From a virus (lineage: Duplodnaviria; Heunggongvirae; Uroviricota; Caudoviricetes), in the IMG/VR virus record IMGVR_UViG_3300018488_000300: DNA of 35,023 bases. The stretch is one strand, 5' to 3'. The notes below the pieces were generated by a model that saw only the letters and a program-made list of their open reading frames with translations, made no database searches and was not told the DNA's origin. The position numbers and the translations under genes were made by a program. Below are positions 1,574 through 32,891 of this stretch, piece after piece. How positions within the stretch are numbered: the first letter of the stretch is position 1; each line of letters begins with the position of its first letter.

Positions 1574-1580
1574 TAGTATG
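1574..1580 (-). promoter_or_regulatory. CATACTA promoter-like motif upstream of virD4
   Basis: TAGTATG on + strand, about 34 nt before the start codon. Confidence 0.55.
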
Positions 1581-1624
1581 AATTTTGGCTTATCTAAAAA
1601 TCAATGATATGAACCAACCAAAGC

Positions 1625-1649
1625 AAAAAAGGGCATTTCTGCCCTTTTT
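1625..1649. terminator. Rho-independent terminator after the 576-aa ORF
   Basis: AAAAAGGGCA-TTTC-TGCCCTTTTT hairpin with A/T tracts on both sides. Confidence 0.75.
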
Positions 1650-3378
1650 ACTCGTCTCTGTCATCTCGATTATTATGGTTTTTATCGAAAAAATCATCTG
1701 GTTCATCATAATCATGATTATGGTCAAATGAATCGTCCATGTCTCTTTCTCTATCCTTTTCTTGTTTACATTCTTCGTATGCCTCATCCAGTGCCCGTGC
1801 CATATGATATGGGTCTCTTACTTTTTCAAATAAAAAATTCTGTTCTATTATATCCATGATCTCAGCAACCCTATCTTTATCACCTAGATTATCTAACAAT
1901 ATCTCCTCAATTGCCTTTGGAGAGCTCTCTTCTGCAATTAAATCAAACACATCCATTCCTACTAAATCCGAAATCAGGCTTTCCCTGTTGTCATTGATTA
2001 TCTGTATATACCTATGATCCAACTCACTCATTACAGATGAATTTTTTATGTATGATTGAGCCAATGGTTCTTCTCCATTATGAGTGTATTCTAATTCATG
2101 GTTTTTGAATCTTCTTCCTTTTTCTTCTTTCTTTAATTTATCAAACTCTTCCTGACTTAATACAAGCAAGGTTCTATTATCTGCAGACATATTTTTTAAT
2201 GAAAATATATCCAATTCTTTATCTGCGCATTTTGTATCGACCAACAGGTGTTTATCTGCTTTATCGATTGATATATTAGCACCTATTTTCATGTAAGTAT
2301 CCCTATCCAACTCATATGCAAAATCTTTTCCATCTGGAACAATTGTGGCTGGAACAACGTATTTTATATCATTAAGCTCATTGACTTTTTTTGTGATTTG
2401 TTCCTTTGTTAATTCATTAACATCTAATTTTTTAATTTCATCAATCAACTTTTCTCTTGCTTCTTTCGATATTGTACTATTCTTTACTAAATCAACAAGC
2501 TTTTCCCGCACATCTTTATCGATATCCAGTTTATTTAATCCAGTGTAAACATATGATATGTTTCTTCTATCTCTTTTTATCTTATCAATATCCAGTACCT
2601 TTTCATTCAGATTTTTTCTGTACTCAACCCTCTTGGCATAATAGTCTTCTATTTCTTTTGCTTCTTTTGTATTCTCCAGATATAACTGTTTTGCTAATAA
2701 TCCCTTAACAATATTAGGAATTGAATATGGTCCTGACTTAACAATTTTACCATTATCCTTTCTTATTTTGCGTTCAAACGTGGATTCAAGAAAACCAACA
2801 TCGACACGTGTTTCTCCATTATTCTCATAGTATTTTGGGAATAATGTAACTTTATTTAGTGGATAATCCAGCTTTGAAATATCGGATAACAGCTGTTCAT
2901 ACTGTGGTTCTGTTAAACCTTTTATTTCTCTCATTGGATTGTCTTTTAGTTTCCCAACATATTCATCTGATTTGATTCTATCTATTTCCGGTAATAATCC
3001 AGCTCTTGCCAAAGCTTCTGATACTACTTTCTCCACCTGTTCCCTATGATTTGAAAAATATAATATGCTCGGAATACTATTTTTGTCATCATCATCAATG
3101 CCGATGATTATTGCTGCAAGCCGCTTTTCTCTATTTAATATATCCTTTGTAATTTCCACTATTTCCGGTGAAAGTGCCCTCGTAACTATTTTATCATTTT
3201 TTGATGTATTTGGATCTAGAGCATGATTAATAATCAGTTGTCCAAGTTCCTTTGTCCCTCGGTTTTTTAAAAAGGCATCTAACAGCCTTGATGCTGCATC
3301 GATAGAAATTCCCATACTTCTAGCGATGACTTCATAACCTTTTGACATGGCTTGCATGTCCTTTGCAATATCTCCCAA
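1648..3378 (-). CDS. Hypothetical protein, paralog of 3396-4802, acidic C-terminal tail
   Basis: 576-aa ORF, TTG start with GGAGG RBS; shares NPMxEIKG, TLFP, DVGF and GPYSIPxI with its neighbour. Confidence 0.85.
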   Translation of the reverse strand: MGDIAKDMQAMSKGYEVIARSMGISIDAASRLLDAFLKNRGTKELGQLIINHALDPNTSKNDKIVTRALSPEIVEITKDILNREKRLAAIIIGIDDDDKNSIPSILYFSNHREQVEKVVSEALARAGLLPEIDRIKSDEYVGKLKDNPMREIKGLTEPQYEQLLSDISKLDYPLNKVTLFPKYYENNGETRVDVGFLESTFERKIRKDNGKIVKSGPYSIPNIVKGLLAKQLYLENTKEAKEIEDYYAKRVEYRKNLNEKVLDIDKIKRDRRNISYVYTGLNKLDIDKDVREKLVDLVKNSTISKEAREKLIDEIKKLDVNELTKEQITKKVNELNDIKYVVPATIVPDGKDFAYELDRDTYMKIGANISIDKADKHLLVDTKCADKELDIFSLKNMSADNRTLLVLSQEEFDKLKKEEKGRRFKNHELEYTHNGEEPLAQSYIKNSSVMSELDHRYIQIINDNRESLISDLVGMDVFDLIAEESSPKAIEEILLDNLGDKDRVAEIMDIIEQNFLFEKVRDPYHMARALDEAYEECKQEKDRERDMDDSFDHNHDYDEPDDFFDKNHNNRDDRDE

Positions 3379-3395
3379 TTATATTACCTCCTTTT

Positions 3396-4802
3396 TTATC
3401 GTGCAATCTCCTCATGGTCTGCAATTGACCTATGAGCTTCCAACTCGGTTCGTTCATTATTAATTAATTCACTTACCTTATCATGTGATTCATAAACAGA
3501 GGCCAATGAATATGCCTGTTCCAATTCGCTTAATAGTTCCATTTCTCTTGTATCCAGTTTTTCATCTATTTCGAGCCAGTCTGTAAAGTCCTCATCTTCT
3601 CTCATGATGATTTCATGAACAGATGCTACAATATAGTTTTCTAAATTTGTGAGATTCCGTCCATTAAAATCATCTGACATCAAAAGAACCTGTTCCCTCT
3701 TCCGATTCAACATTCCTATCAAAGACTCTGATATCTGTTTATCCCGCATCTCTTTTGGTTCAGCATAAACAGGCATTGGATTTTCTTTATAGAACTGTAT
3801 GTTTTTCGGATCAATCATGATATCATTTTTAAACAGATTAAACTCGTCTACTGTCATTGGGACAAGCGTATGATTCAATCCAATAAGACGACTGGCTATG
3901 AATTTATTCACATCATTTATGTTTATATCGCTTTCATAATAATCAACTTCATAAGCCTGGTCCATAAAAACATTGTAATCCTCTTTGCCAACAATCGCCG
4001 GAACAAGATAATAAGGATTATCTGACTCGTAGTACATATCAATGATATTTTGCATCAGTTCATGATTTTTCTTTTGTATTTCCTCATACTTCTTTTCCAT
4101 CTCCGGTTTTTCTAATATTGCACTGGCTAATATAACTGAAGCAATTTTAGGGATGGAATACGGTCCAGCCATTTCTTTGATAGAACCCTTTTTCATCATG
4201 ATGGATTCTGTTTTTGCGAAAAACCCAACATCGATTTTGTCGTTATCCTGCTGGCTAGGGAATAAGGTGAATCTCATTTCATATGGTAATTTTTTTATAT
4301 TCTTTTTCATATTTTCATATATCCCTTTTCTTACTCCCTTGATTTCCAACATAGGATTCGTGTCCTTTATCGCCCTAGCAAATAAATCAGCATCTTCACG
4401 AGTGATTTCTTCAGCGGTACCTGAAACCGCACAGGCTTCCAATAACAAACGATTAAATTCATCTATTTGTCCTGATAAAACCAGTACACTGATTTTATCG
4501 TTTTTCCCGTAAGTCCGGCCACTATCTCCGCTAAAATCAATCAGGATTATTCCAACTGACTCTCTTTTGCATATTTCAATCAGACTTTTTAATGCTCCTA
4601 TATCAACTGATTTCGATATTAATGTCGAGCTTTTATATTCTGGCTGTAAATATGCCTGGCATAGTAAGGATACCTGATTCTTGAATTCATCATCCTCCAA
4701 AGATTGGTCAACAATTTCTTTTGCTCGTTCAGGATTTGATAACGATCGGATTAATAATTTTGATAATATATTCCTCAGTTCCGTATCATTTAGTTTGTTC
4801 AT
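3396..4802 (-). CDS. Hypothetical protein, paralog of 1648-3378
   Basis: 468-aa ORF with GGAG RBS and the shared motifs listed for 1648-3378. Confidence 0.85.
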   Translation of the reverse strand: MNKLNDTELRNILSKLLIRSLSNPERAKEIVDQSLEDDEFKNQVSLLCQAYLQPEYKSSTLISKSVDIGALKSLIEICKRESVGIILIDFSGDSGRTYGKNDKISVLVLSGQIDEFNRLLLEACAVSGTAEEITREDADLFARAIKDTNPMLEIKGVRKGIYENMKKNIKKLPYEMRFTLFPSQQDNDKIDVGFFAKTESIMMKKGSIKEMAGPYSIPKIASVILASAILEKPEMEKKYEEIQKKNHELMQNIIDMYYESDNPYYLVPAIVGKEDYNVFMDQAYEVDYYESDININDVNKFIASRLIGLNHTLVPMTVDEFNLFKNDIMIDPKNIQFYKENPMPVYAEPKEMRDKQISESLIGMLNRKREQVLLMSDDFNGRNLTNLENYIVASVHEIIMREDEDFTDWLEIDEKLDTREMELLSELEQAYSLASVYESHDKVSELINNERTELEAHRSIADHEEIAR

Positions 4803-4974
4803 AATCGCACTCCTTTGCTATATAGTAAAATCTTAAACATATTAAGATTGACTATTTATAGTTATTATGTTTTTTTAATCTTTGCAAAAACAAAAAAAAA
4901 GAGGATGTTCTGCTTAATTAGCTTGTTTTTATCAGTAAAGAATATCTTCTTAAATATCAATCAAATAATCATCG

Positions 4975-4981
4975 CATACTA
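4975..4981 (+). promoter_or_regulatory. CATACTA promoter-like motif
   Basis: About 50 nt upstream of ATG 5032. Confidence 0.5.
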
Positions 4982-5031
4982 TCTGTGTTCAAAACATAAA
5001 AAAAGATGATTTAAAAATATGGAGGTAAAAA

Positions 5032-5262
5032 ATGAAATGTATACTGACTACCTATGTAGAAAGGGAACTATCTGCCCAGGAATGTAATGATTTAGAAGCA
5101 GCTAAAATTGCGATGAGAACCGATTATGAAAAGGTGTTAGGTGAAGAACTAGAAGAAAAGGAAAATAATAATGAAGCAGAATATTGTGAAGATGGCCTAT
5201 GTGCATGGGCGAATGATGTGAATCATAATAACTATGACTGGAAAATTGTAGAACTATCATGA
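5032..5262 (+). CDS. Small acidic hypothetical protein
   Basis: 76 aa, GGAGG RBS, followed by a terminator. Confidence 0.8.
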   Translation: MKCILTTYVERELSAQECNDLEAAKIAMRTDYEKVLGEELEEKENNNEAEYCEDGLCAWANDVNHNNYDWKIVELS

Positions 5263-5266
5263 ATAT

Positions 5267-5292
5267 AAAAAAAGAGGGATACCCTCTTTTTT
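5267..5292. terminator. Bidirectional Rho-independent terminator
   Basis: AAAAAAGAGGG-ATA-CCCTCTTTTTT. Confidence 0.75.
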
Positions 5293-5321
5293 ATAATTTC
5301 TCTGGTAAGTTTCTTCCTATG

Positions 5322-5480
5322 TATTCTAATCCGTCTATTGACACTCCACACGACTAAAGTCGTGGGATTCTTGCTTCAGCGACCACTACATTGCTACGAA
5401 AGCTTTAGTTTTACACGATCTCCACAAGCGTAAATTCCCGTATGTCCTACGGTACTGATATGTTTTATGCTACTGAAAGC
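5322..5480 (-). ncRNA. TnpB omega-RNA (right-end RNA); predicted guide from the flank 5337-5322
   Basis: Established IS605 biology: the RNA overlaps the tnpB 3' end and right end and the guide comes from flanking DNA. The 5' boundary is approximate. Confidence 0.7.
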
Positions 5481-6610
5481 CCTTTCTTTAGGATATTTAT
5501 GCTTGCATTGGTGTCCCTGTCGTGCGTTGTATGGCACACCGGACACTCCCATTTACGGATTGCAAGATTTCTTACCAATGGGTTCTTGTATCCACAACAA
5601 GAGCAGGTCTGACTGCTTGGGTACATAGTCGGTACTTTAATGATGTCATTTCCATACCAATCAGCTTTGTACTTAAGCATTGTAAAGAACTTTGACCATG
5701 ATACGCTTGCTATGGATTTCGCAAGTTTATGATTACGAACCATGCCTTTTACATTCAAGTCCTCTATGCAGATAGTTTGGTTTTCACTAACAAGCATAGT
5801 TGACTGTTTCTGCAAAAAGTCATTCCGCTGATTTGTAATCTTCTCATGTACCTTGGCAACTTTGATACGCTGTTTATTGCGGTTATTTGAGCCTTTTTGC
5901 TTACGGGATAGCCTGCGTTGCTCACGGATGAGCTTACGCTGCGACTTCTCCAGATACTTAGGATTGTTTACAGTATTTCCGTTGCTGTCGGAGTAAAATT
6001 CCTTGATACCTACATCAATGCCGACCATACATCCGGCATTCGGACGAAACTCCGGCTCAAAGTCAACATTCAGGACAACAAAGTATTTGCCTGTCGGAGT
6101 ACGTTCTACAGTGACATTATTGATATGCCCAGCTTCCATAGACTGCTTGATTTTGACATATCCAAGTTTCGGGAGCTTGATATATTTACTAACAATGCGG
6201 ATGTTATCGCCTTGGTTGAGGGTTCTGTATGACTGATGGTTATTGTGCTTGCTCTTGAACTGCGGATGCCTTGCGCGCTTTTCAAAGAAGTTTTTAAAGC
6301 CACGGTCTAAATCCCTTAATGACTGTTGAAGCGCAATAGAATCAACGTCTTTCAGAAAAGCAAAGCCATCCTGCTTTTTAAGGTCTGTAAGCATTGCAGA
6401 GGTCTGGTTATAGCCGATTTTCTGACCTCTGCCGAATGCATCGCTGCGCATGGCAAGACCTTTGTTGTAGATGAATCTGCAACATCCAAGCGTCTGATTT
6501 ACTAAGTTTTGTTGCTGTTTATTGGGATATGCCCTAAACTTAATACCTTTTTGCGAACTCGAACGTCTCGTGTTCGAGGTTCGAATTTCTGTCTTCGATA
6601 GAATTTGCAT
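5465..6610 (-). CDS. tnpB: RNA-guided endonuclease TnpB
   Basis: KFRAYP HTH start, RuvC-I GIDVG, RuvC-II IEDL, Zn finger CSCC/CPVC, RuvC-III DRDTNA. Confidence 0.95.
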   Translation of the reverse strand: MQILSKTEIRTSNTRRSSSQKGIKFRAYPNKQQQNLVNQTLGCCRFIYNKGLAMRSDAFGRGQKIGYNQTSAMLTDLKKQDGFAFLKDVDSIALQQSLRDLDRGFKNFFEKRARHPQFKSKHNNHQSYRTLNQGDNIRIVSKYIKLPKLGYVKIKQSMEAGHINNVTVERTPTGKYFVVLNVDFEPEFRPNAGCMVGIDVGIKEFYSDSNGNTVNNPKYLEKSQRKLIREQRRLSRKQKGSNNRNKQRIKVAKVHEKITNQRNDFLQKQSTMLVSENQTICIEDLNVKGMVRNHKLAKSIASVSWSKFFTMLKYKADWYGNDIIKVPTMYPSSQTCSCCGYKNPLVRNLAIRKWECPVCHTTHDRDTNASINILKKGLSVA

Positions 6611-6618
6611 ACTGTCAC

Positions 6619-7020
6619 CTACGGTCTTGTTTTTTGGGTATCAACGTACCATTGGATGGTTTCAGAGCTTACATTGCCCGCCGTGCTGACAAAATAGCTT
6701 CGTGTCCAGAGACTTGGCATGGCTTTAAGCCGTGGAAACTCTTCCCTTAGTTTTAGGGATGTGGCGCCCTTGATTTGCTTCATGATGTTTGGAATGCTCA
6801 TAGTTGGTAATACGCTAACAAAAATATGAACATGGTCTATATGGCATTCTAAAGCAAAAATTTCAATACCGCATTTATCACATTCAGCTATGGTCAGTTC
6901 CTTAAACCGTTGTTCTACTCCCGGAATATTGAATATTTTTCTCCTGTACCGTGGGCAGAATACAAAATGATAGTTAATCAGCGATACTGTTGTTTTAGTG
7001 TACTTATATTCGTTTTTCAT
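6619..7020 (-). CDS. tnpA: Y1 (HUH) transposase TnpA
   Basis: YHFVFCPRYRR, DHVHIF (HUH), LWTRSYFVSTAG and the catalytic Tyr in IQWYVDTQ. Confidence 0.95.
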   Translation of the reverse strand: MKNEYKYTKTTVSLINYHFVFCPRYRRKIFNIPGVEQRFKELTIAECDKCGIEIFALECHIDHVHIFVSVLPTMSIPNIMKQIKGATSLKLREEFPRLKAMPSLWTRSYFVSTAGNVSSETIQWYVDTQKTRP

Positions 7021-7026
7021 GAGTAT

Positions 7027-7055
7027 ATGGTATCACATTTGTAGATGATAGTCAA
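7027..7055 (-). promoter_or_regulatory. Sigma-A-type promoter of tnpA (probably leaderless mRNA)
   Basis: TTGACT-17 nt-TACCAT with a TG extension, 6 nt before ATG 7020; no RBS. Confidence 0.6.
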
Positions 7056-7133
7056 ATTTATATCTACAATTAAAGAGGGCGCGGGCTATCATCCTCACGG
7101 TTGAAACCGTGGGTTTTCCCGCCCGCAATGGTT

Positions 7134-7151
7134 ATAAATTTTAGTGCTCAT
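7134..7151 (-). pseudogene. 5' part (MSTKIY) of a small ORF interrupted by the IS605; 3' part at 5291-5337
   Basis: AAAGGA RBS and ATG 7151; joining the flanks with one shared A gives MSTKIYIDGLEYIGRNLPEKL*. Confidence 0.45.
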
Positions 7152-7196
7152 TCGTTTTCCTTTCTTTTATTTTTCTCCTGCTTCTTTTTATAACGA

Positions 7197-7203
7197 TAGT
7201 ATG
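7197..7203 (-). promoter_or_regulatory. CATACTA promoter-like motif
   Basis: About 46 nt upstream of ATG 7151. Confidence 0.5.
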
Positions 7204-7248
7204 TATTTTTTTAATTAGCTAAGATATCCATATGAAGAATGTTACAAA

Positions 7249-7330
7249 GGAACTTAGTGACTCGAACCACAAATGATTAACTTATGGGCCGGTTGTTCTA
7301 CCCAATCAATTAAAAAAAAACTGAATCTCC
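7249..7330 (-). pseudogene. Degenerate tRNA-like sequence, anticodon CAT
   Basis: GGAGATT/AAGTTCC acceptor-like ends, GGTAGAAC D-arm remnant, CCCATAA loop and GGTTCGAGTC T-loop. The anticodon stem does not pair, the D-loop is expanded by T9, and there is no CCA. Confidence 0.5.
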
Positions 7331-7353
7331 GGTTTTAATCTTTTTGCATATCA

Positions 7354-8463
7354 TTATTTTAATTTTAAAATAGAACAAATCTCGGCTACAGCATCATCAA
7401 TACTTCCATTATTATCAATGATATAATCACAAAGCTCTTCGTTTTTCTTTTCATCATCCAGGGAAACAATCCTGTTAACAATATCCTCCTTCGTTGTTTT
7501 ACCATCCATAAGGCGCTGCAGCATTACATCAACTAATTTCATCCTGTCCCTTTTAATGTACATGATGACTGTCTGATACTGCATTTTCAGGACCATTGCA
7601 CCAGAGATATCAATTGCCATGATACAATGTTTTCCATTATATAATACATCATTGATACTATCCAGTTCTGTACCGTACTTCTCACCTGCATATACTGTGG
7701 TTTCAGCAAATCTCTGATCCGCTTTCATTCTTTCAAATTCCGAATCAGATACAAAGTGATAATAATCATCACCATCACGAGGGATTCTTGTTGTTGCAGA
7801 CACAGGTCTGTCAATCTTTTCATACTGGAGAAGCTCATTTAGCAATGTTGTCTTTCCAGATCCACTCGGTCCTACCAATGCAACTACAGTCGGCTTTCTA
7901 AGTGAAATCGATGTTTCAGCATATGATGCCTTGACACAATCAACAACATTTAAAAATTCATCGTAATTATTGATTGCTAATACACCTGTGATATGCTCAT
8001 TCCATGGACGTCTAAAAAGAACCGGATATTTAGCTGCTGACACCAAGACATTATGTGCTCCATCATCCAATGTAAAGTCAACATTGATAACATCTTTTCT
8101 TGATGCTGGAATAATATTACTTGGCTTGATTTCTGGAAAGAATTTTTTGATTTGATTAATCCTTATATTGATGGATTCCGGCTCGATTGCAGTTACGATG
8201 AATATTTCCACTTTCTTACTTAATTTTTTTATAAACTGCTGCGCTCTTGGATATGGAAGCTGCCGTTTATAGAATTCCGGATCTTTAAAGAAGTCCAGCA
8301 ATGGTTCTGCTCTTGTCCCTGCAAGGTTCCAAGCCTTAATCTCATTTACAGTCACTGGTGGATTGAATACACCATTCTCATTTGCCAATTCGCAGGCCAA
8401 TGAAACACATGGCATTAAGACATCATCTACATCAATAGCCGCTGAGTATCTATAGTTTTTCAT
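7354..8463 (-). CDS. Fusion: NT5C-type HAD 5'(3')-deoxyribonucleotidase + guanylate kinase-like domain
   Basis: N-terminal IDVDDVL and LDDGAHN (HAD motifs I/IV); C-terminal GPSGSGKTT, SATTRIPR, YHF and KYGT. Confidence 0.85.
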   Translation of the reverse strand: MKNYRYSAAIDVDDVLMPCVSLACELANENGVFNPPVTVNEIKAWNLAGTRAEPLLDFFKDPEFYKRQLPYPRAQQFIKKLSKKVEIFIVTAIEPESINIRINQIKKFFPEIKPSNIIPASRKDVINVDFTLDDGAHNVLVSAAKYPVLFRRPWNEHITGVLAINNYDEFLNVVDCVKASYAETSISLRKPTVVALVGPSGSGKTTLLNELLQYEKIDRPVSATTRIPRDGDDYYHFVSDSEFERMKADQRFAETTVYAGEKYGTELDSINDVLYNGKHCIMAIDISGAMVLKMQYQTVIMYIKRDRMKLVDVMLQRLMDGKTTKEDIVNRIVSLDDEKKNEELCDYIIDNNGSIDDAVAEICSILKLK

Positions 8464-8464
8464 T

Positions 8465-9088
8465 TTAAATCCTCCTTTCCTCTTCTCTTTTTACAGATTT
8501 GTACTTAGCCATATAATTCCTATCGTAAAACAGTTCTACTGCAGTGTTTGATAGAGACTCATCATATTGGTTGTAAATCAGAATTGAGCCTTCCTTGATG
8601 CTTAGAATCAATTCATCTTTTTCAGAAAAATCTGTTGCATCAGACTTAATTCTTCTACATACCTCAGCATAATCTGGTCTTTCCTTATGTTCTTCCCTTA
8701 ATATGATATTTAAGATTCTCTGCTCATCATCCGTATCAATCCATACCGGAATGATAGCTGCTTTATCCTTGTAATATGTTATGACTTCATCATATTGTTT
8801 TGGGCAGACAATCAAGCAGTAAGTCTTGTCATCTTCCACTTTTTCTTTCATGATTCCGAAGTACCAGTTCCCATATGCTGTTTCAATGTATAACTTTCCA
8901 ATGTATGGTTCTTCATGAAACTCTTTTTCTGACATAAAATAATAGTCTTTTCCATCGACTTCACCTGGACGTGCTGGTCTTGTTGTACATTCATGTAATG
9001 GATTCACGCCTAACTTCACCAGTTCATCTTTTAATGTATTTTTACCTGAACCGGATTTTCCTATAATAAGATATAGTATTGGTTTCAT
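8465..9088 (-). CDS. Guanylate kinase-like protein (divergent)
   Basis: GKSGSGKNT P-loop and TTRPARPGEVDGKDYYF GMP-binding signature. Confidence 0.85.
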   Translation of the reverse strand: MKPILYLIIGKSGSGKNTLKDELVKLGVNPLHECTTRPARPGEVDGKDYYFMSEKEFHEEPYIGKLYIETAYGNWYFGIMKEKVEDDKTYCLIVCPKQYDEVITYYKDKAAIIPVWIDTDDEQRILNIILREEHKERPDYAEVCRRIKSDATDFSEKDELILSIKEGSILIYNQYDESLSNTAVELFYDRNYMAKYKSVKREEERRI

Positions 9089-9123: not shown

Positions 9124-9130
9124 TAGTATG
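9124..9130 (-). promoter_or_regulatory. CATACTA promoter-like motif
   Basis: About 36 nt upstream of ATG 9088. Confidence 0.55.
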
Positions 9131-9230: not shown

Positions 9231-9237
9231 CATACTA
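9231..9237 (+). promoter_or_regulatory. CATACTA promoter-like motif (divergent partner of 9124-9130)
   Basis: About 77 nt upstream of ATG 9315. Confidence 0.5.
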
Positions 9238-9314
9238 TCAATGAGCCTGCCGCAAGGACTTAATCGTAGTGCAACGAAGCACTTATACCGCAACGGGAAA
9301 GGAGCGCTATCCGA

Positions 9315-10004
9315 ATGGATAAGCAAATATTATTATACGAGTACGAACAAATCTTACTCGGGAACAAAACTGGGTATGCACCCTATTATTTTAAATATGG
9401 CGATGATACATCGCAGAACTATGCCTTATATATTATTAAATTTGCAGTTGAAACTTACTTAGGATGGGATCCATGGGACTTTAAAAACCACTATAACCAA
9501 CAAATATCAAAACAACTAAAACTGGAGCCACTAATGAAATATATTGATTACCCTCCAGAATTAGATAAGACAAAGGATTATTATTATTTATCTGCTTTGA
9601 TTTATCCTGAAGTCATTAATATTGACATTAAGGAATTGGTGCTAAGAACCTATAAAGATGTGCTGGATGGGAAACTCTGTAAATTTCCAAAAGAGTACTT
9701 ATCCGGAACAAAGGGAATGATGCGGGCAAGTATCTGTTTACAATATATGCTATCCCAGAATTATACGTTTTCCAGTATTAAAGCGATGTATAAGTTTTTC
9801 TCCGAGCCATCTGGTTCAAGAGCACTAAAAAAATTCAGGTTAAGTAATATCTGCAATGAAATATACGAACATCCTTTAGATTATCTTCATGAATCACTCC
9901 CAAAAGGACAACAAGATGAATATTGGTATCATTTCTTCCGTTTTAAAGTTTTTTATAACGCACAGATGAAACAAATTAAAAAACAATCCAAAAGCAAGGC
10001 ATAA
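9315..10004 (+). CDS. Hypothetical protein, possibly DUF4046-like (two internal repeats)
   Basis: 229 aa, AAGGAG RBS. Repeated pattern (PYYF..ALYIIKF..YL.W and FPKEYL..A.ICLQY.L) recalled as DUF4046-like, not verified. Confidence 0.55.
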   Translation: MDKQILLYEYEQILLGNKTGYAPYYFKYGDDTSQNYALYIIKFAVETYLGWDPWDFKNHYNQQISKQLKLEPLMKYIDYPPELDKTKDYYYLSALIYPEVINIDIKELVLRTYKDVLDGKLCKFPKEYLSGTKGMMRASICLQYMLSQNYTFSSIKAMYKFFSEPSGSRALKKFRLSNICNEIYEHPLDYLHESLPKGQQDEYWYHFFRFKVFYNAQMKQIKKQSKSKA

Positions 10005-14330: not shown

Positions 14331-14400
14331 TTCAAAATCTCCTTTATTCTTCATTGACTACACATGAATAATGGTAGATTTATAATTGAAATAACTATAA

Positions 14401-14427
14401 AAAGAAAAAAGACAGTTTCCTGTCTTT
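14401..14427 (-). terminator. Terminator after recD2
   Basis: AAAGACAG/CTGTCTTT hairpin followed by a T tract on the minus strand. Confidence 0.65.
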
Positions 14428-16790: not shown

Positions 16791-16797
16791 TAATATG
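16791..16797 (-). promoter_or_regulatory. CATATTA promoter-like motif
   Basis: About 43 nt upstream of the recD2 ATG, about 19 nt after the preceding terminator. Confidence 0.5.
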
Positions 16798-18128: not shown

Positions 18129-18135
18129 TAATATG
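18129..18135 (-). promoter_or_regulatory. CATATTA promoter-like motif
   Basis: About 74 nt upstream of ATG 18055, just after the pspA terminator. Confidence 0.45.
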
Positions 18136-18153: not shown

Positions 18154-18178
18154 AAAAGAAAAACGCCCGAAGGCGTCT
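18154..18178 (-). terminator. Terminator after pspA
   Basis: AAGACGCC-TTCG-GGCGTTTTCTTTT (UUCG tetraloop). Confidence 0.8.
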
Positions 18179-18190
18179 TATATTTTACAG

Positions 18191-19947: not shown

Positions 19948-19954
19948 TAGTATG
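19948..19954 (-). promoter_or_regulatory. CATACTA promoter-like motif
   Basis: About 40 nt upstream of the re-assigned start 19908. Confidence 0.55.
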
Positions 19955-20062: not shown

Positions 20063-20203
20063 CCATTTATCTCATATTGACCAACTTCGGATGTTAATGA
20101 ACTTATTTAGAAGCGGAAGTACTCTCGACAGTTGTGATGGAATATGGCTAGCTATAATTCATGAATTCTTACATATCTTTAATTTTGATGGTTCCGATAA
20201 TGA

Positions 20204-21013
20204 TCAGCCTATTGCATCTTTAAATATAATTTCTAATTCATTTCCAAATTTAACATAATCGTTATAATCAAAAGGTCCATTTTCTTCTTGCGTAAGATAC
20301 TGTCTATATAAAAGTTCTTTGGTTTTTATCACCAGATCAATAATTTTTGGCTCCTTCTGAGAATAATTCATTTTTCCTTTGGCCTCATCTATTGCAGCTA
20401 CTGCAGCTATCTTATAAAACAAATTCATAATATAGGCATTATCTTTCCAATTAAGAATATAATGAAAAGTCGATATGATTCCATCCATATTCTCAGCTAT
20501 TTCTATATCATGAAATTCGATAGCATTTTTATAATAAGCGTAAAATTCAGCAATTGCATAATAAGCTACTTTGTCCCATATTCCATTGTACTTGTGTAAA
20601 GTTATCTCATATAATTTTTCACAGCAAGTCTTCCCATGCTTTTTATAGGTCTCAATAAGTAGCCTGGCATGAAAGAATTCATGTGTCATGTCTTTCTCAT
20701 ATTTGTTATGGTAATTTTTGAAATAAAATTGTGAGAATTTGAAACTAATTTTGGGTTTGTCTTCTATAATCCAACACATTTCTGCTGCTGAATCTAAATT
20801 TGTATACTTAACAGAATCTATGTATTCAGCAATATCAAATTGATTCATGAGTTCATTTTCTCGCATAAAGTTTTCATTCATATCATTCTTTATAAAATCC
20901 TCAAATTTTACAGGTTTCGAAATGATGGGTTTTTCTACATCAATTATTTCAATATCTTTTTGCTCTTTATAAGTATTGGATTTAATTTTTTTTAATATGT
21001 CAATGAACTTCAT
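20204..21013 (-). CDS. Putative zinc metallopeptidase (HExxH)
   Basis: DMTHEFFHARL plus a downstream IAEFYAY (candidate third ligand Glu); GGAG RBS. Confidence 0.6.
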   Translation of the reverse strand: MKFIDILKKIKSNTYKEQKDIEIIDVEKPIISKPVKFEDFIKNDMNENFMRENELMNQFDIAEYIDSVKYTNLDSAAEMCWIIEDKPKISFKFSQFYFKNYHNKYEKDMTHEFFHARLLIETYKKHGKTCCEKLYEITLHKYNGIWDKVAYYAIAEFYAYYKNAIEFHDIEIAENMDGIISTFHYILNWKDNAYIMNLFYKIAAVAAIDEAKGKMNYSQKEPKIIDLVIKTKELLYRQYLTQEENGPFDYNDYVKFGNELEIIFKDAIG

Positions 21014-21042
21014 AAATTCTCTCCTTTAATTCTGTTTTTGTA

Positions 21043-21051
21043 ATTATATCA
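21043..21051 (-). promoter_or_regulatory. Extended -10 sigma-A element TGATATAAT
   Basis: TG-N-TATAAT 30 nt before ATG 21013. Confidence 0.6.
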
Positions 21052-21111
21052 TATTTTTTACTAAATAGGAAAAATAATATCCACTTTAAAGAAAATTATT
21101 TCTTATATAAT

Positions 21112-21223
21112 CATACTAACAATATACACGATAATTTGGTGTTATATTTATGAAAACATTAATGAAACTGTATACAGTAATTTTCATAGTATAAAATTAA
21201 GAAGGCCTACTAAGCCTTTTTTT
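21112..21223 (+). other. Candidate small transcript (sRNA or 14-aa peptide MKTLMKLYTVIFIV)
   Basis: CATACTA at 21112, ORF 21150-21194, terminator AAGGC-CTACTAA-GCCTT-T tract at 21202-21223. Confidence 0.3.
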
Positions 21224-21277
21224 GCTATAAAAAAGGCCAATCATATATCTCACTTATATGATCAGCCTTATGAAAAT

Positions 21278-24001: not shown

Positions 24002-24008
24002 TAATATG
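24002..24008 (-). promoter_or_regulatory. CATATTA promoter-like motif
   Basis: About 31 nt upstream of ATG 23971, about 16 nt after a terminator. Confidence 0.5.
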
Positions 24009-24023: not shown

Positions 24024-24049
24024 AAAAAAGAAGAGGTAATCCTCTTCTT
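24024..24049. terminator. Terminator
   Basis: AAGAAGAGG-TAAT-CCTCTTCTT hairpin. Confidence 0.7.
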
Positions 24050-25139: not shown

Positions 25140-25370
25140 TTACATATAATCATAAGGGCTCTTATGTCTTCGTGCATGGACATCATTATTTTTCATTAGG
25201 CTGTTATTTGCGTCCTCTTCTGATGTAAATATACGGTGTTTTGGCAGGCGTATTGCTCCACCATTCAACTTAATTGTATATAAGTTTCCACTACAGGCTA
25301 ATATGTGCACCTGGGTAACTTTATTGTTATTCTCTACAATATATCCAGTATCACCTTTCTTTAACACCAA
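25140..25370 (-). CDS. Small conserved hypothetical protein (SH3-like beta-rich pattern)
   Basis: 76 aa, KKGDTGYIVENN...RIFTSEEDA...SPYDY; TTG start with GAGAGGA RBS. Confidence 0.65.
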   Translation of the reverse strand: MVLKKGDTGYIVENNNKVTQVHILACSGNLYTIKLNGGAIRLPKHRIFTSEEDANNSLMKNNDVHARRHKSPYDYM

Positions 25371-25444
25371 TTTTCAATCCTCTCTAGATGGTATAAATAT
25401 ATTATAGTATTGAAAAATGAAAAAAGCAATTCCATGTTCTCCAT

Positions 25445-26706
25445 TTATTTTTCATACATGGAAATAATAAGTTTCTTTTCTTCACCATTACGGTTTATAA
25501 TATATGTATATGGATTCGCTGCATTATGTTTTAATAATACAGTTTGCAGGTCCCATTCTTCATGAATTTCAATTCCATCAATAGATATGACAATGTCACC
25601 TATATGAATACCCACATGTTCTGCTGGAGAATTTTCCTCAACACTTGTAATGATATATTTTCCATTCATAAAAGAACTGATGGTCACACCTATTTTTTCA
25701 TTGCTGGATTTATTCTTGGATTGTGTTTGTGTCTCAACTGGCTCGCTCTCTGTTATTTCAATTCCCTTTGTTGGATCCGCTTCTCTTTCATTACAACTAA
25801 CATTAATTGTTCTTTCTATGTTGTCTCTTTCTATTATAAAAATATATGGTTTTCCATTTATATGTGTCCTCAAATTGTATCTCCTGGCTTTAAACCTGCT
25901 CTTTCTGCTGGCGAATTATATTCTACATTAACAATTTTAAACCGCTTATCATCTGTTGAATAATTAAGATTTATACCCACTTTATCGTGTGTTCCCGTAT
26001 CAATAGAGTTTTCTGTAGTTACCTCGCTCATATAGTTTGATAAATCAGATACTGCATTATCCATATTATTTTCCGGTCGTGGTAATACTAATGCAATGAA
26101 TAATATAGCCATAATTGTTAATCAACAAACAAAAGCATGGGCGGCCTCTGGCCCAGCCTCTCGTTCAGAATGTTCTCTTTGTTTCTTAGGTCTTTTTCTA
26201 CATAATGAAACGGTTCCGAAATCAATCCAATCGCTATAATTATATGTATAATATGAATAAGTATACTTATCATTATTTTTATTTTTTTCTGTTGATATTT
26301 TAATTTGAATATACAAATCTATAATTCCATAATTATTAAATTTATCTATAGTCGGTTTAAGATCAATATAGTTTTTGTCCCTTGCCTCTAAATAATATGT
26401 GTTTAAAACTTCTTTTTCTTTATTACTGATTTGGATAAGTAGGATATAACCTATGATATTGTTAGTTGTATTGATACACAATTGTATGTTATCCTGCACA
26501 CTAACAGATACACCTTTTTCTACATCATGATATAACTTTTTAATTTTTTTGTTTTCGTTTAGTTCGTATAAAAGATTATCCTTTTGATTAATTGTTTCTT
26601 CAACAATATATAGACTTACGCAAAACGGGCAGGTTGCTGTTATTTTATTTGTATCTATCTGTATTTCATGTTTACATTCCAGACAAATTCCATTAACGAA
26701 TCTCAT
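25445..26706 (-). pseudogene. Disrupted Zn-ribbon + TM + tandem PDZ protein
   Basis: ORFs 26122-26706 and 25870-26112 are in the same frame, separated by one TGA inside a TM helix. Frameshift at about 25870 within PDZ1 (NSPAERAGLKPGDTI); PDZ2 is NSPAEHVGIHIGDIV. Confidence 0.7.
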
Positions 26707-26756
26707 TTAAACTCCTTTCTACTACTTATCATATAACTATATTATGTAATGAAAAC

Positions 26757-26785
26757 AAAAAACAGGAATTTGAATTCCTGTTTTT
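26757..26785. terminator. Terminator
   Basis: AAAAACAGGAATT-TG-AATTCCTGTTTTT inverted repeat. Confidence 0.7.
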
Positions 26786-26806: not shown

Positions 26807-27109
26807 TTACGCTTCAATAATTAAACGTCCTGTTGCCGATTCATCAAAGATAGCATTCAAGAAGTAGGCATGATTATAATGAAAGTATTTTTTAATTAAA
26901 TCATACCCTGCATTCAGTAATCTCTGTTCATTATCCTTTGTTAAATAATAATTTTCTCCTACAAGCAAATAACAGGACATTTTGCCTTCTTTTTTTGCTT
27001 TCTCGATTTTATCAAGACAATTTAAAAGTTGCTTTGCCTCTGCATCCATGCATGCATTTTTTGCATTTGGGACATGAAACATTCTCTGATTTGTTCTCTT
27101 CTTTGTCAT
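26807..27109 (-). CDS. Hypothetical protein
   Basis: Start re-assigned to ATG 27109 (GGAGG RBS); about 100 aa. Confidence 0.7.
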   Translation of the reverse strand: MTKKRTNQRMFHVPNAKNACMDAEAKQLLNCLDKIEKAKKEGKMSCYLLVGENYYLTKDNEQRLLNAGYDLIKKYFHYNHAYFLNAIFDESATGRLIIEA

Positions 27110-27207
27110 AATTAAATCCTCCATTTAATCGTCTCCAAATTTCTCATCTTATATATAATGTATTTTTTTTTATACATATAAACAAACAAAAACCAGATAA
27201 TTCTGGT

Positions 27208-27657
27208 TTAGTTTTTCATCATATCAGTAAGTTGTGCATTTACAAGTTTACCATCTGCTTTACCTTTTACCTTTGGCATCAATACTTTCATGATTTTTCC
27301 TGTATCCGACTTTTTCGGATTACTAATCCCAAGCTCATCCAGGGTATCATTGATAATTTCTTTTATCTGAGCGGGTGACAAATCTTCCTCAACAAACTCC
27401 TTATATACAGCAATTCGATATGAGGCTTCTTTTTTGATATCCTGTCTTGTCTCTGGAGCTGAATCAAACGTTTCTTTTGTCTGTTTGATTTCTTTTTTTA
27501 TAATGACATCTTCTTCAGCCTCAGTAAGAGCTGACCGCTTATCAATTTCCGCATTTTTGAGAGCTCCCAACAACATTGATAGAGCATTCTTTCTTTTCTT
27601 ATCATTTGATTTCATCGCTTTCATCATTTCATTTCTTACCAATTCGGTTCTGTTCAT
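27208..27657 (-). CDS. yqeY: GatB/YqeY domain protein
   Basis: MMKAMKSNDK..LSMLLGALKNAEID..GKIMKVLMPKVKGKADGKLV. Confidence 0.9.
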   Translation of the reverse strand: MNRTELVRNEMMKAMKSNDKKRKNALSMLLGALKNAEIDKRSALTEAEEDVIIKKEIKQTKETFDSAPETRQDIKKEASYRIAVYKEFVEEDLSPAQIKEIINDTLDELGISNPKKSDTGKIMKVLMPKVKGKADGKLVNAQLTDMMKN

Positions 27658-27907: not shown

Positions 27908-28249
27908 TTATGATTTAGCTATTTTTTTAATTGCTTCGATTAGTTCATTTAAATCAACATAATTGCCATAGCATATCTGGTACTGAGTCTTATCTTGTAT
28001 ATTTCTTACCGTGTCGTATCCCAGCATCTCGATGATTTGATGCATACCAATATGACAGCCAACTTCATACCCTTCGTCATAACATGATTCATTTTCATCT
28101 TCTGTTTTATATCCTATCTCACTATCGCAATCGTCATAACCATCCTTTTTGCCCTCATTATAACCCTCATCATAACCAGCTTTATAAACCTTTTTAATAT
28201 ATGCCATATCCTTTTCCGGTATATTTTTATCTATAAAATCAAAATTCAT
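27908..28249 (-). CDS. Hypothetical protein with G-Y-D-E-G-Y repeats
   Basis: 113 aa, GGAGG RBS, GYDEGYNEGKKDGY and YDEGYEVG. Confidence 0.7.
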   Translation of the reverse strand: MNFDFIDKNIPEKDMAYIKKVYKAGYDEGYNEGKKDGYDDCDSEIGYKTEDENESCYDEGYEVGCHIGMHQIIEMLGYDTVRNIQDKTQYQICYGNYVDLNELIEAIKKIAKS

Positions 28250-28302: not shown

Positions 28303-28309
28303 TAGTATG
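28303..28309 (-). promoter_or_regulatory. CATACTA promoter-like motif
   Basis: About 54 nt upstream of ATG 28249. Confidence 0.5.
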
Positions 28310-31023: not shown

Positions 31024-31035
31024 TATTTTTTTCTC

Positions 31036-31308: not shown

Positions 31309-31325
31309 ATTTTTTCTCCTTTCTC

Positions 31326-31880
31326 TTAGTCCCATCTTGACTTGATCATTCGAGTTTCTAATAGTCTTGTTTCTATAATTGATAATGCAAAATTTAATTC
31401 AGTGGAAAAACCAAGATCATCTGCTATTCCATTCATATGTATTCGATTTTCTGCATCAAGATGTTTTTCTGTCAATAATTTTAACGTTTTCTTTGGAATT
31501 AATAATTCATGTGCCAAAAATTGAATTTCTTCAAAATCAGAGCCCATCCCATTTTGATATTCAATGTTTTTCATATTATGAAATTTTTCATCATCAATCT
31601 CATAACTCATTTTCAGAAACAGAATTGCCAATGCCTCTGCAACTGAACAGAGTTGTTTCAATAAATCTTTTTCTTTCTGTACATGAACGATAAATCCATT
31701 TCCACAGCGACAGACCTCAGTAACAGAAGCAAAATCTCGATACTCAATTCCACCGCCTAACTTTTCTATTAGTTCATCTGGTTGAAGAAACTTTTGATTG
31801 GTTGCAATTAATGAAAAATCAAAGACGTTTAAAACTTCTTCAGCAAATGATTGTAATAATGTTTTTAATTTAATATCCAT
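31326..31880 (-). CDS. ImmA/IrrE (DUF955)-like protein lacking HExxH
   Basis: LIEKLGG..GFIVHV..CSVAEALAILFLKMSY..EEIQFLAHELLIP..IADDLGFS follows the ImmA pattern (FTIAHELGHLFLHMGY..EANxFAAxLLMP..IAxxFxVS). Confidence 0.65.
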   Translation of the reverse strand: MDIKLKTLLQSFAEEVLNVFDFSLIATNQKFLQPDELIEKLGGGIEYRDFASVTEVCRCGNGFIVHVQKEKDLLKQLCSVAEALAILFLKMSYEIDDEKFHNMKNIEYQNGMGSDFEEIQFLAHELLIPKKTLKLLTEKHLDAENRIHMNGIADDLGFSTELNFALSIIETRLLETRMIKSRWD

Positions 31881-31927
31881 ATTTTTTCTCCATTGTTATA
31901 TGAACTTTGCTATTGGTGCAGTTTGGA

Positions 31928-32854
31928 TTATTGCATCAGATTATCTACTAAAGTGTCAACTAATACATCCTTTATTTCATCTTTAATTGGTGCTCCAGCA
32001 GCTTTTGGATATCCACCTCCACCAAATAAATCAGCCATTAATTTTCCTAGGTCAATGTCCTCCCGCATTGTTCGGCAAGAAATTTTTCCATCCATATCGA
32101 TAATCATTATGAAATCCAATTCTGGGTGCTTCTTATACAACTTGTTTCCCATTTCATTCACATATTTGTCCGCAAAGATTATTCCAACATTATATCCAGA
32201 AATTTTTCTTGGCAGCATTGTCTGTTCTTTTTCTTTTATATATTCATCAATTTCTCTTTGCTTTAATTTTAATAACAACAAATCAGTTTCTGATAATTCT
32301 GGGAAAGATTTTTTTCTAATTTTTTTCATACTCCATGAAATAAAGTCGTCTCTTCCTAAAATTCCAAATAAATCATTAAGCTGCTTGCAAATAATACCAC
32401 TATCTCCAAGTTCTGCCCATCGCCAAGTATCATAATCTCGGACTGCTTGGACGAATGTTAATAGTGTATCATTATTTTTTAAATATATATGACTTATTAA
32501 CCAGTTATAATATAATTCTGTTCCGGAAGTTTTAATTTCAGTAAAATCATTTTGAATTTTAACCCTGCACCAATTATATTTATTTAGGTTTAATGCAGTT
32601 GGGTGGTGATCTAATAACTGAATGTTTTGGGAATTTATACTATGGTTAATTTTTTCAGCTAGTTCTTCTTTGATGCTGATATCTGTAATATGGCACTCGC
32701 TAATAGTTTCTTTTTTTCTCATCAATTTTTCAATTTCATCATTGATATTACTATAATCACAATAGGAAATATTTATGTTTTCGCCAAATGCTAATTTTGC
32801 TAAAATTGCACAACCTATTCCGTCTAAATCCGTATGTGTAAATAATTTAATCAT
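31928..32854 (-). CDS. DHH/DHHA1 phosphoesterase (NrnB/oligoribonuclease-like)
   Basis: FTHTDLDG, LLDHH, DYDTWRW, GGGGYPKAAG. Confidence 0.88.
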   Translation of the reverse strand: MIKLFTHTDLDGIGCAILAKLAFGENINISYCDYSNINDEIEKLMRKKETISECHITDISIKEELAEKINHSINSQNIQLLDHHPTALNLNKYNWCRVKIQNDFTEIKTSGTELYYNWLISHIYLKNNDTLLTFVQAVRDYDTWRWAELGDSGIICKQLNDLFGILGRDDFISWSMKKIRKKSFPELSETDLLLLKLKQREIDEYIKEKEQTMLPRKISGYNVGIIFADKYVNEMGNKLYKKHPELDFIMIIDMDGKISCRTMREDIDLGKLMADLFGGGGYPKAAGAPIKDEIKDVLVDTLVDNLMQ

Positions 32855-32884
32855 ATTTCTCTCCTTTTCTTGTTTTGATATTTT

Positions 32885-32891
32885 TAATATG
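32885..32891 (-). promoter_or_regulatory. CATATTA promoter-like motif
   Basis: About 31 nt upstream of ATG 32854, directly after the topB terminator (32911-32938). Confidence 0.5.

Follow-up and report, generated by a model that had tools for sequence, protein, structure and literature searches.

A short -10-like motif heads most transcription units of an apparently conjugative, plasmid-like element of gut Clostridia and is probably read by an element-encoded sigma factor

The late promoters served by gp55 of phage T4 have the form TATAAATA. The gp36 promoter of phage phiEco32 carries AATGTA at -11.5 (PMC12276001). On the Bacillus subtilis plasmid pBS32, the plasmid-encoded sigma70-family factor SigN (ZpdN) directs host RNA polymerase to a plasmid-confined regulon; its gene is first transcribed from host SigA promoters, its own promoters are bipartite (TTTACG -35 and GATATAA -10), and its regulon is a DNA damage-induced subset of pBS32 genes (PMC6751061).

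We compared these systems with a 35,023-nt stretch of DNA (the window) and its relatives, in which the motif CAT(A/T)(A/C/T)TA recurs at gene heads. By analogy, the arrangement would resemble that of pBS32 SigN, with sigma genes carried by the element, a motif confined to it, and initial transcription of one sigma gene (sigma372) from a sigma-A promoter. Unlike the bipartite SigN promoters, the motif has no -35 and has C at what would be -12, and most transcription units carry it, whereas the SigN regulon is a subset of plasmid genes. The layout is also like that of phiEco32 and T4, in that early genes would use the host sigma and the bulk of later genes an element sigma acting at one short motif near -10; as at -10-only phage promoters, a single short motif without a -35 precedes most non-early genes. 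Unlike phiEco32 and T4, the element seems closer to a conjugative plasmid than to a phage, the motif sequence differs, and the element's sigma factors are full-length, not minimal proteins of the gp55 or gp36 type.

All 12 CATAYTA sites listed in an earlier sequence-only reading of this DNA lie at the positions and on the strands it gave (Table 1), and the motif is enriched against composition-matched controls: the window holds 29 CATAYTA matches, compared with 15.8 +/- 3.5 in dinucleotide shuffles, and 0 of 100 shuffles reached 29. Intergenic DNA makes up 10.9% of the window and contains 13 of these 29 matches (binomial P = 4e-6). CATACTA occurs 8 times in intergenic and 0 times in coding sequence, ranking first of all 7-mers for intergenic enrichment, and all 8 copies are oriented toward a gene. 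On the sense strand, 11 of 36 window genes have the motif 15 to 67 nt upstream of their starts; the antisense control gave a count of 1, and 2000 shuffles gave a mean of 1.6 and a maximum of 7. A purine stands exactly 6 nt past the motif in 12/12 window sites (P = 2e-4). The motif proved wider than first described, comprising CATA[ACT]TA plus CATTATA. Two of the three near-matches of the sequence-only reading, at about 26740 (CATAATA) and about 27160 (CATTATA at 27154), are full members; the third, at about 24229 (AATACTA), is probably not a site, because the essential C is missing and the sequence is unconserved in the relative. Its observation that the sites share no -35 was borne out in 143 anchored sites from two relatives, where no upstream column exceeds 0.25 bit and T at -21/-20 is the sole upstream signal. 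This T signal lies at about the same distance (20 to 25 nt) as the terminator T-tails that precede several window sites. The site at 19948 is within the longest ORF, yet upstream of a likely TTG start with a strong ribosome-binding site. No fold signal was found in the conserved leader downstream of 9231, and an Rfam search of the window gave no match.

Table 1. Motif sites in the window and one contrasting promoter region
Feature	Position	Strand	Downstream unit	Other features
CATACTA	1574..1580	-	33 nt before ATG of VirD4-type coupling protein gene (2-1540)	Terminator 1626-1649 precedes; site conserved in G001
CATAATA (variant)	4863..4869	-	60 nt before 3396-4802 / 1648-3378 operon	Added to the earlier list
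CATACTA	4975..4981	+	50 nt before small gene 5032-5262	
CATACTA	7197..7203	-	Short ORF (ATG near 7150)	ORF interrupted by IS200/IS605 insertion (about 5338-7139)
CATACTA	9124..9130	-	35 nt before guanylate-kinase-like operon (8465-9088, 7354-8463)	
CATACTA	9231..9237	+	77 nt before 9315-10004	Conserved leader follows
CATTATT (weak variant)	14367..14373	-	About 36 nt before likely ATG (~14327) of AAA_5 ATPase gene	Terminator 14408-14427 precedes
CATATTA	16791..16797	-	42 nt before RecD2-like helicase gene (14454-16748)	Terminator 16819-16838 precedes
CATATTA	18129..18135	-	17708-18055 and SLOG-fusion gene	Terminator 18160-18179 precedes
CATACTA	19948..19954	-	Likely TTG start (~19890) of gene 18871-19890, then PspA gene	
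CATACTA	21112..21118	+	~100-nt unit with 13-codon ORF	Terminator 21202-21218 in unit
CATATTA	24002..24008	-	30 nt before P-type ATPase gene (21278-23971)	Hairpin 24028-24049 precedes
CATAATA	26740..26746	-	26122-26706	Terminator 26758-26785 precedes
CATTATA	27154..27160	-	26807-27124	Terminator 27190-27209 precedes
CATACTA	28303..28309	-	53 nt before 27908-28249 operon	
CATATTA	32885..32891	-	30 nt before DHH-family gene (31928-32854)	Terminator 32914-32938 precedes
Contrast: HExxH cargo gene and promoter	20204..21060	-	HExxH cargo gene (20204-21013)	Sigma-A-type extended -10 (TGATATAAT)

The motif was resolved further in G001, a 233-kb relative that is syntenic with the window and is listed as viral in IMG/VR. 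Exhaustive k-mer tables were used in place of position weight matrix refinement with a reverse-complement control, for which the reverse complement is unfit because divergent spacers hold real sites on both strands. CATACTA has 64 copies in G001, 44 of them intergenic, and 30 of these are in sense orientation 15 to 60 nt upstream of a start; in an unbiased hexamer ranking ATACTA and CATACT lead, with sense:antisense counts of 37:5 and 37:4. In silico mutagenesis showed that a single substitution in CATACTA cuts the sense-upstream count to between 0 and 4, except for A, C, or T at position 5 (G at this position, 0/34), and that position 2 is always A and position 6 always T. CATTATA is also in use (19 copies), CATAATA (as at 4863 in the window) is a validated variant, and 8 copies of CATTATT are sense-upstream. 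Overall, the motif reads CAT(A/T)(A/C/T)TA, and every position matters. Anchored alignments place a purine at +12 from the motif C in 83/89, 132/143, and 35/36 sites, with T as the preceding base in 87/143, and the distance from motif to ATG peaks at 27 to 34 nt. CATWHTW stands at 125 of 175 gene heads in G001, and about a dozen of the remainder have sigma-A-type promoters.

Motifs are kept inside spacers that have otherwise diverged between the window and G001, as at 9124..9130 (CCATACTAT kept, flanks diverged) and 28303..28309 (TACATACTATATATG kept, rest of the spacer diverged), and orthologous genes retain the motif while position 5 drifts. The subclasses CATACTA, CATAATA, CATATTA, and CATTATA have no upstream signal of their own, and orthologous genes are not tied to any one of them. 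Seven further loci, including the extension of the window's own contig (L016) and relatives with 38 to 62% sigma identity, gave 43 sense and 2 antisense matches.

The element looks like a conjugative plasmid-like element of gut Clostridia of about 235 kb, whose genes include those for VirD4, a VirB4/TraG-like protein, and a sortase-adhesin. Searches for two phage families, Terminase_6N and the HK97 capsid, gave no match, and megablast of 25 kb of the window found nothing in PLSDB and, in phage records, the IS element alone. Lacrimispora amygdalina, the one isolate carrier, has the motif at 48 of 130 gene heads of its element contig (shuffle mean, 6.5) and at 4 of 92 in a 160-kb piece of its chromosome (shuffle mean, 3.4): in the one host and 160 kb of chromosome sampled, the motif is confined to the element and unenriched before host genes.

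The sigma70-family genes that the sequence-only reading anticipated are present: the element has two, encoding proteins of 267 aa (sigma267) and 372 aa (sigma372), both full-length with regions 2 to 4 (PHROG 351). The sigma267 gene lies 8.4 kb beyond the end of the window on the same contig. Sigma372 is present in G001, and an approximately 84% identical copy of its region occurs in the window's probable source sample; it was not located on the window's own contig, and a 62% homologue was traced to other contigs. G001 and the element contig of L. amygdalina each carry both sigmas; co-occurrence cannot tell them apart, because both are found in the full-contig-length records G001 and G002:C23. 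The sigma372 family comprises 78 clusters and that of sigma267 about 11. Searching PLSDB and INPHARED with sigma372 by tblastn gave no match, and IMG/VR scans with either single protein or with a profile returned just the one relative. Against SigE/F/G/K equivalog or subfamily models the element sigmas score 39 to 72 bits, with cutoffs of 250 to 457 bits that the host's own SigE, SigG, and SigF pass, and region 2.4 of both differs from that of host SigE, SigF, and SigG. A conserved protein of about 70 aa is encoded just upstream of sigma372. No RNA polymerase beta-subunit match (RNA_pol_Rpb2_6) and no DxDGD motif was found in any predicted protein of the element; a search for T7-type RNA polymerase gave no match in the element, but none in any control genome either.

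We consider it likely that CAT(A/T)(A/C/T)TA is the -10 of a promoter class private to the element and read by an element sigma, with sigma372 favored. Aligned to a sigma70-family -10, the motif C would be base -12; the two invariant positions then coincide with the A-11/T-7 skeleton of that family, the last base becomes a conserved A at -6, and there is no -35. Sigma70-family promoters start about 7 nt past T-7, usually at a purine that follows a pyrimidine, and the purine of the element sites lies 7 nt past this T. The predicted start is therefore this purine, 6 nt past the motif, which would give short leaders of about 20 to 28 nt containing just the ribosome-binding site. Host core RNA polymerase bearing an element-encoded sigma would most likely be the enzyme. 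TTGACA-17/18-TATAAT stands before the sigma372 operon in G001, L023, and L044, and the host could start a cascade because this operon lies behind a sigma-A promoter. Sigma267 is probably a target, since a CATATTA conserved in four relatives precedes its gene, and it may act as a later or reinforcing reader. The motif carries about 12 bits of information, which is low for a promoter that acts alone, and an additional, as yet unseen factor may have to assist.

Sigma372 is favored as the reader because of its sigma-A promoter, the likely position of sigma267 among the targets, and a His that aligns (HMMER) with Q437 of Escherichia coli sigma70 and is invariant in 78/78 homologues. The Q437H substitution in sigma70 suppresses a T-to-C change at -12 (PMC2613000), and the invariant His of sigma372 would likewise accompany the invariant C of the putative promoters. 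Q437H is a single substitution in a primary sigma, obtained in the laboratory, whereas the His of sigma372 is natural and fixed in a diverged family, where its role in specificity is putative. From this one-residue analogy, the promoter logic, and the breadth of the family, we infer the identity of the reading sigma; the order of the cascade is likewise putative.

A possible, though doubtful, alternative is that sigma267 reads the motif, or that the two sigmas act in turn, one early and one late, with -10 specificities that overlap like those of SigF and SigG. Sigma267 is the factor on the window's own contig, the CATATTA upstream of its gene would fit positive autoregulation, its region 2.4 (A/S-E-M-R/K/S) is loosely like that of SigF and SigG (G-E-I/V-R/K), and a search of the 50 G001 gene heads without the core found no third motif that could be assigned to it. 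However, the residues that it has at the Q437 and T440 positions differ (A/S and R/K/S) from one relative to another although the motif is unchanged, no sigma-A-type promoter that could set off a cascade precedes its gene, and its family is narrow, with no member on distant motif-bearing contigs within the limited sensitivity of the search.

It is very unlikely that host sigma-A, aided by an element-encoded activator or a sigma-appropriation factor, reads the sites as weak -10 hexamers (CATAAT, CATACT). The invariant A at -11 and T at -7 are the two bases that sigma-A most needs, and sigma-A-type promoters do exist on the element. Of the two that the sequence-only reading proposed in the window, that of the HExxH gene, a cargo gene absent from G001, stands as a TGnTATAAT type, and the match at the IS tnpA gene is weaker (TTGACT-17-TACCAT). 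Yet selection at -12 favors C and not T, the base best suited to sigma-A: sense-upstream fractions in G001 are 30/64 for CATACTA versus 2/31 for TATACTA, and 27/107 for CATAATA versus 14/161 for TATAATA. Motif sites also have neither a TG extended -10 nor a -35, the absence of enrichment before host genes is contrary to sigma-A reading, and the window shows no excess of sigma70-type promoter matches over shuffles.

Sporulation promoters require a -35 (GnATA, ATA, or AC), SigE and SigK -10 boxes end in a conserved T, and the -10 consensus of B. subtilis SigG, CATXHTA, equals the motif. The element sites share with SigG, SigE, and SigK promoters a -10 that begins CATA, and the 7-mer resembles the -10 boxes of C. 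difficile sigK promoters P1 (CATATTAT) and P2 (CATATAAT) (PMC3789822). This match and the intact sigE, sigF, and sigG genes of L. amygdalina speak for a host sporulation sigma (SigG in the forespore, SigE or SigK in the mother cell) that reads the motif and ties element expression to sporulation. We nonetheless regard such reading as highly improbable: no -35 of the GnATA (sigma-G), ATA (sigma-E), or AC (sigma-K) type was seen at any spacing, with G and C depleted upstream; the eighth base shows no preference (A in 38 and T in 40 of 89 sites), unlike the conserved T of SigE and SigK boxes; reading by a sporulation sigma would silence over 70% of the transcription units of the element outside sporulation, replication and transfer genes among them; and the element has sigmas of its own that are not sporulation orthologues. 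The sequence-only reading had proposed an element-encoded or sporulation-type sigma and a link between transfer and sporulation; the analysis supports the dedicated regulon and the element sigma genes but not the sporulation type or the link, given the missing -35 and the lack of orthology of either sigma to SigE/F/G/K. Because the 7-mer likeness is real, cross talk with sporulation is conceivable. The element -10 would then be the forespore SigG -10 word minus its -35, and the element sigmas and the host sporulation machinery could cross-read each other's promoters, which we think improbable. If it occurs, sporulation would switch the element on, or an element sigma would misfire sporulation genes of the host, with consequences for dormancy like those shown for some sigma factors encoded by Bacillus phages.

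It is barely credible that the motif is no promoter but the operator of a DNA-binding regulator or a signal acting at the RNA level in 5' leaders: its fixed distance to the start codon would also suit a leader element, but a promoter is needed in these spacers, where an intrinsic terminator typically precedes the motif and nothing else is conserved, and strict strand specificity, the A-11/T-7 skeleton, and the pyrimidine-purine pair at the expected start count against this reading as well.

Since an element-encoded sigma most likely reads the motif, transcription of the element is probably under a program of its own. The motif permits transcription units of poorly annotated elements to be mapped from sequence alone, and since it is compact (seven bases) and orthogonal to host promoters, it could serve with its sigma as a promoter-sigma pair for engineering Clostridia. 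Sigma372 would also allow a long-standing genetic finding, that His at position 437 of sigma70 shifts the -12 preference from T to C, to be tested in a natural protein. If reading by an element sigma is correct, very large conjugative elements that form a widespread family in gut and rumen Clostridia would hide most of their genes from the housekeeping sigma and turn them on with a sigma of their own, as large phages do, and the private promoter class would act as both a transcriptional firewall and a master switch for replication, transfer, surface-protein, and tRNA genes.

The twelve CATAYTA sites listed in the sequence-only reading were all present in the window, and the motif is enriched there over shuffled controls (29 matches versus 15.8 ± 3.5). 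Thirteen of the 29 matches fall in intergenic DNA, which makes up 10.9% of the window (P = 4e-6). CATACTA is the first-ranked 7-mer for intergenic-over-coding enrichment, and its eight copies are all intergenic and gene directed. In sense orientation, the motif lies 15 to 67 nt upstream of 11 of the 36 window genes, most of which are on the minus strand, versus one gene in antisense and a shuffle mean of 1.6; generic sigma70-type promoter matches are not commoner than in shuffles. Several sites lie 20 to 60 nt downstream of an intrinsic terminator, and units in the window are therefore ordered terminator, motif, ribosome-binding site, and gene. One CATACTA heads a unit of about 100 nt with a 13-codon ORF, ending at a terminator; this unit (fold z-score, -1.8) is missing from the syntenic 233-kb relative G001 and could be a small RNA or micro-peptide gene. 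A G+C-rich leader following another promoter is conserved with G001 far above its flanks but has no Rfam match and no fold signal (z = -0.06).

We defined the motif in G001 (233,248 bp), with which the window is colinear between 159.6 and 199 kb at 72 to 95% nucleotide identity. Here 44 of 64 CATACTA copies are intergenic, though just 9.5% of the sequence lies between genes, and 30 lie in sense 15 to 60 nt ahead of a start. When all hexamers were ranked without bias by sense-upstream share, ATACTA and CATACT came out on top. In an in silico mutagenesis, tabulating sense-upstream counts for all single substitutions of CATACTA, changes at C1, A2, T3, T6, or A7 reduced the count from 30 to 0 to 4, position 5 tolerated any base other than G (0/34), and position 4 tolerated T only as CATTATA (19 copies). 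The relaxed core CATWHTW stands at 125 of 175 gene heads. Of the 50 heads without it, roughly twelve are served by canonical TTGACA-17-TATAAT or TGnTATAAT promoters and several more belong to false ORFs of the tRNA region; no third promoter motif emerged.

As the sequence-only reading had held, the sites share no -35 box: in anchored alignments of 89 sites from G001 and then of 143 sites from G001 and a second element, all upstream columns carried ≤0.25 bit. The sole upstream signal, T at -21/-20 relative to the motif C, probably reflects the T-tails of preceding terminators, because several window sites lie 20 to 25 nt past a terminator stem. Downstream, a purine stands exactly 6 nt past the motif at 83/89 G001 sites, 132/143 sites of the two elements, 12/12 window sites, and 35/36 sites at distant loci, and the base before it is usually T. 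Next comes a ribosome-binding site, at +25 to +30, and the distance between motif and ATG peaks at 27 to 34 nt. With this purine as +1, the motif would read C-12 A-11 T-10 A/T-9 H-8 T-7 A-6. A-11 and T-7 are the two bases captured by region 2 of sigma70-family proteins, and the usual -12 base is T; the motif would retain the former two and swap T-12 for an obligatory C. Were the housekeeping sigma-A its reader, TATACTA would be the better hexamer, yet only 2 of 31 copies of TATACTA are used in G001, versus 30 of 64 for CATACTA, which argues against that reader.

The sequences CCATACTAT (site 9124) and TACATACTATATATG (site 28303) are kept between the window and G001 in otherwise diverged spacers. 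Between the window's own contig and L019, a locus about 70% identical to it, orthologous genes retain the motif, and position 5 or the flanks change. The same word has the same placement at loci encoding homologues (38 to 62% identity; 25 to 43% G+C) of sigma372, an element-encoded sigma70-family protein. Seven further loci yielded 43 sense and 2 antisense matches; they include L016 (from the 235,748-bp ENA contig k141_5020), which continues the window's own molecule, because the two overlap at 100% identity. In Lacrimispora amygdalina src4, the motif stands at 48 of 130 gene heads on the element contig (32% G+C; shuffle mean, 6.5) and at 4 of 92 heads, the shuffle level, in 160 kb of chromosomal sequence (42% G+C). 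In this one isolate host, as far as the 160 kb of chromosome sampled shows, the motif is exclusive to the element. The IS element and the HExxH gene do use sigma-A-type promoters, as the first reading had it, and both belong to window segments missing from G001 that look like recent insertions; the IS200/IS605 copy shares 98.5% identity with a copy in Enterocloster phage CB473P3. A TACTAT at 25404 was rejected as a CATA-class member, since it belongs to a canonical sigma-A-type promoter.

Coordinates of features in the window, in G001, and at loci fetched via sigma homologues
Feature	Record	Position	Strand	Remark
Segment not in G001	Window	4817-7354		Small plus-strand gene and IS200/IS605 copy
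Leader	Window	9238-9314	+	After 9231 promoter
Segment not in G001	Window	20070-21336		Carries HExxH gene
Short unit headed by CATACTA	Window	21112-21225	+	Terminator 21202-21218
Sigma-A-type promoter TTGCTT-17-TATAAT	Window	25396-25423	-	Serves 76-aa gene 25140-25370
Overlap with L016	Window	33394-35023
~70-aa ORF	G001	109385-109594	-
~70-aa ORF	L022	9739-9945
~70-aa ORF	L023	9774-9989
~70-aa ORF	L025	9775-9984
~70-aa ORF	L044	9782-10000

The window (35 kb, 33% G+C), from a bovine gut metagenome, encodes a VirD4-type coupling protein, an IS200/IS605 insertion, nucleotide kinases, a CobT/VWA and AAA_5 pair, a RecD2-like helicase, a PspA-family protein, a P-type ATPase, an MscS channel, and a type IA topoisomerase. 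G001 encodes a VirB4/TraG-type ATPase, a 1444-aa lysozyme/NlpC-P60 protein, a sortase-type SpaA/TED adhesin, and a gyrase subunit, and genes for DnaE, SSB, and primase occur at related loci. G001 is filed as viral in IMG/VR (90% completeness), a label that looks doubtful given the conjugation genes (VirD4, VirB4/TraG-like, cell-wall hydrolase, and sortase adhesins) and the lack of matches in G001 to Terminase_6N and HK97 capsid, the two families searched. Despite that label, we read the element as a probable giant conjugative, plasmid-like replicon. G001 has no RNA polymerase beta-subunit match, and the DxDGD catalytic motif occurs in none of its predicted proteins; a T7-type polymerase search was empty there but also in every control genome and is uninformative. 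On the 215-kb scaffold L024 (43% G+C), a 53% identical sigma372 homologue adjoins a host-like dnaG-sigA-trmK operon, and the NlpC/P60, sortase, and giant surface-protein genes beside it all have CATACTA or CATAATA; L024 may represent this system in integrated form or as a small island.

A search for sigma70-family genes in G001 recovered two, encoding sigma372 (372 aa) and sigma267 (267 aa), both in PHROG 351 and both with regions 2 to 4. The sigma267 gene is on the same contig as the window, 8.4 kb past the window end; a copy of the sigma372 region, about 84% identical, is on a 42-kb contig of the window's probable source sample and is not placed on the window's molecule. Neither is a sporulation sigma. 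Against SigE/F/G/K models they score 39 to 72 bits, versus cutoffs of 250 to 457 bits that the host's own SigE, SigG, and SigF pass. In region 2.4, HMMER aligned a His of sigma372 to Q437 of E. coli sigma70, and this His is invariant in 78/78 homologues (38 to 100% identity). Q437H is one of two known sigma70 substitutions suppressing T-to-C at -12 (PMC2613000). Sigma267 has A/S and R/K/S at the Q437 and T440 positions, varying among motif-sharing relatives, and its family is much narrower than that of sigma372, for which PLSDB and INPHARED held no match. Co-occurrence cannot separate the two, because both are present in the two element records at full extent (G001 and the L. amygdalina element contig, G002:C23).

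In G001, L023, and L044, the sigma372 operon stands behind TTGACA-17/18-TATAAT. It includes a conserved ORF of about 70 aa with a [FY]NxW motif, recorded at related loci as always directly upstream of the sigma372 gene, whose product may be an anti-sigma or co-factor; complex prediction with sigma372 gave no verdict either way. In L027 (L. amygdalina src4, NZ_OAOF01000012.1), the site immediately ahead of the sigma372 homologue, which in other relatives is taken by the sigma-A promoter and the ~70-aa ORF, carries an inserted TnpB-like ORF. The sigma267 gene lies 150 nt downstream of a CATATTA conserved in four relatives.

The motif's likeness to sporulation -10 boxes is real, and CATXHTA is the -10 consensus for SigG of B. 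subtilis. Clostridial mother-cell -10 boxes (CATATTAT or CATATAAT; PMC3789822) are similar as well, but it is very improbable that a host sporulation sigma reads the motif directly, and the link to sporulation raised at first is not supported: sporulation promoters require -35 boxes, which the element sites lack, these sites show no conservation of the T that is the eighth base of SigE/SigK boxes, the candidate element sigmas are not orthologues of sporulation sigmas, and it is implausible that a replicon would have replication and transfer genes that could be read nowhere but in the sporangium. Cross-talk between the element's promoters or sigmas and the host sporulation machinery is less remote but still improbable. 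A dedicated, element-encoded sigma regulon is instead what the sequence evidence supports, through the motif's enrichment, its restriction to the element, and the sigma genes. The invariant His and the promoter of its operon favour sigma372 as the reader. The simplest reading would assign the motif to it in a cascade: host SigA would make sigma372, sigma372 would read the CATWHTA units, the sigma267 gene would be one of these, and sigma267 would possibly reinforce or extend the programme.

Phage cascades are closest in working principle, with early genes read by the host sigma and the rest via a phage sigma and one -10-centred word. T4 gp55 is a phage sigma of this type. Another, gp36 of phiEco32, reads AATGTA (PMC12276001). 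Among plasmids, the nearest parallel is SigN of pBS32. This sigma is encoded by the plasmid, its initial synthesis depends on SigA promoters, and its regulon does not extend beyond the plasmid, but its own target promoters are bipartite (PMC6751061), whereas the element motif has no -35. According to a C. difficile promoter atlas, no consensus has yet been identified for sigma factors that mobile elements carry (PMC7438776). Mobile-element sigmas with private promoters are known as a kind; what appears new here is one whose predicted private promoters have no -35 and carry C at -12, and L. amygdalina src4 could perhaps be used to study the element in the laboratory.
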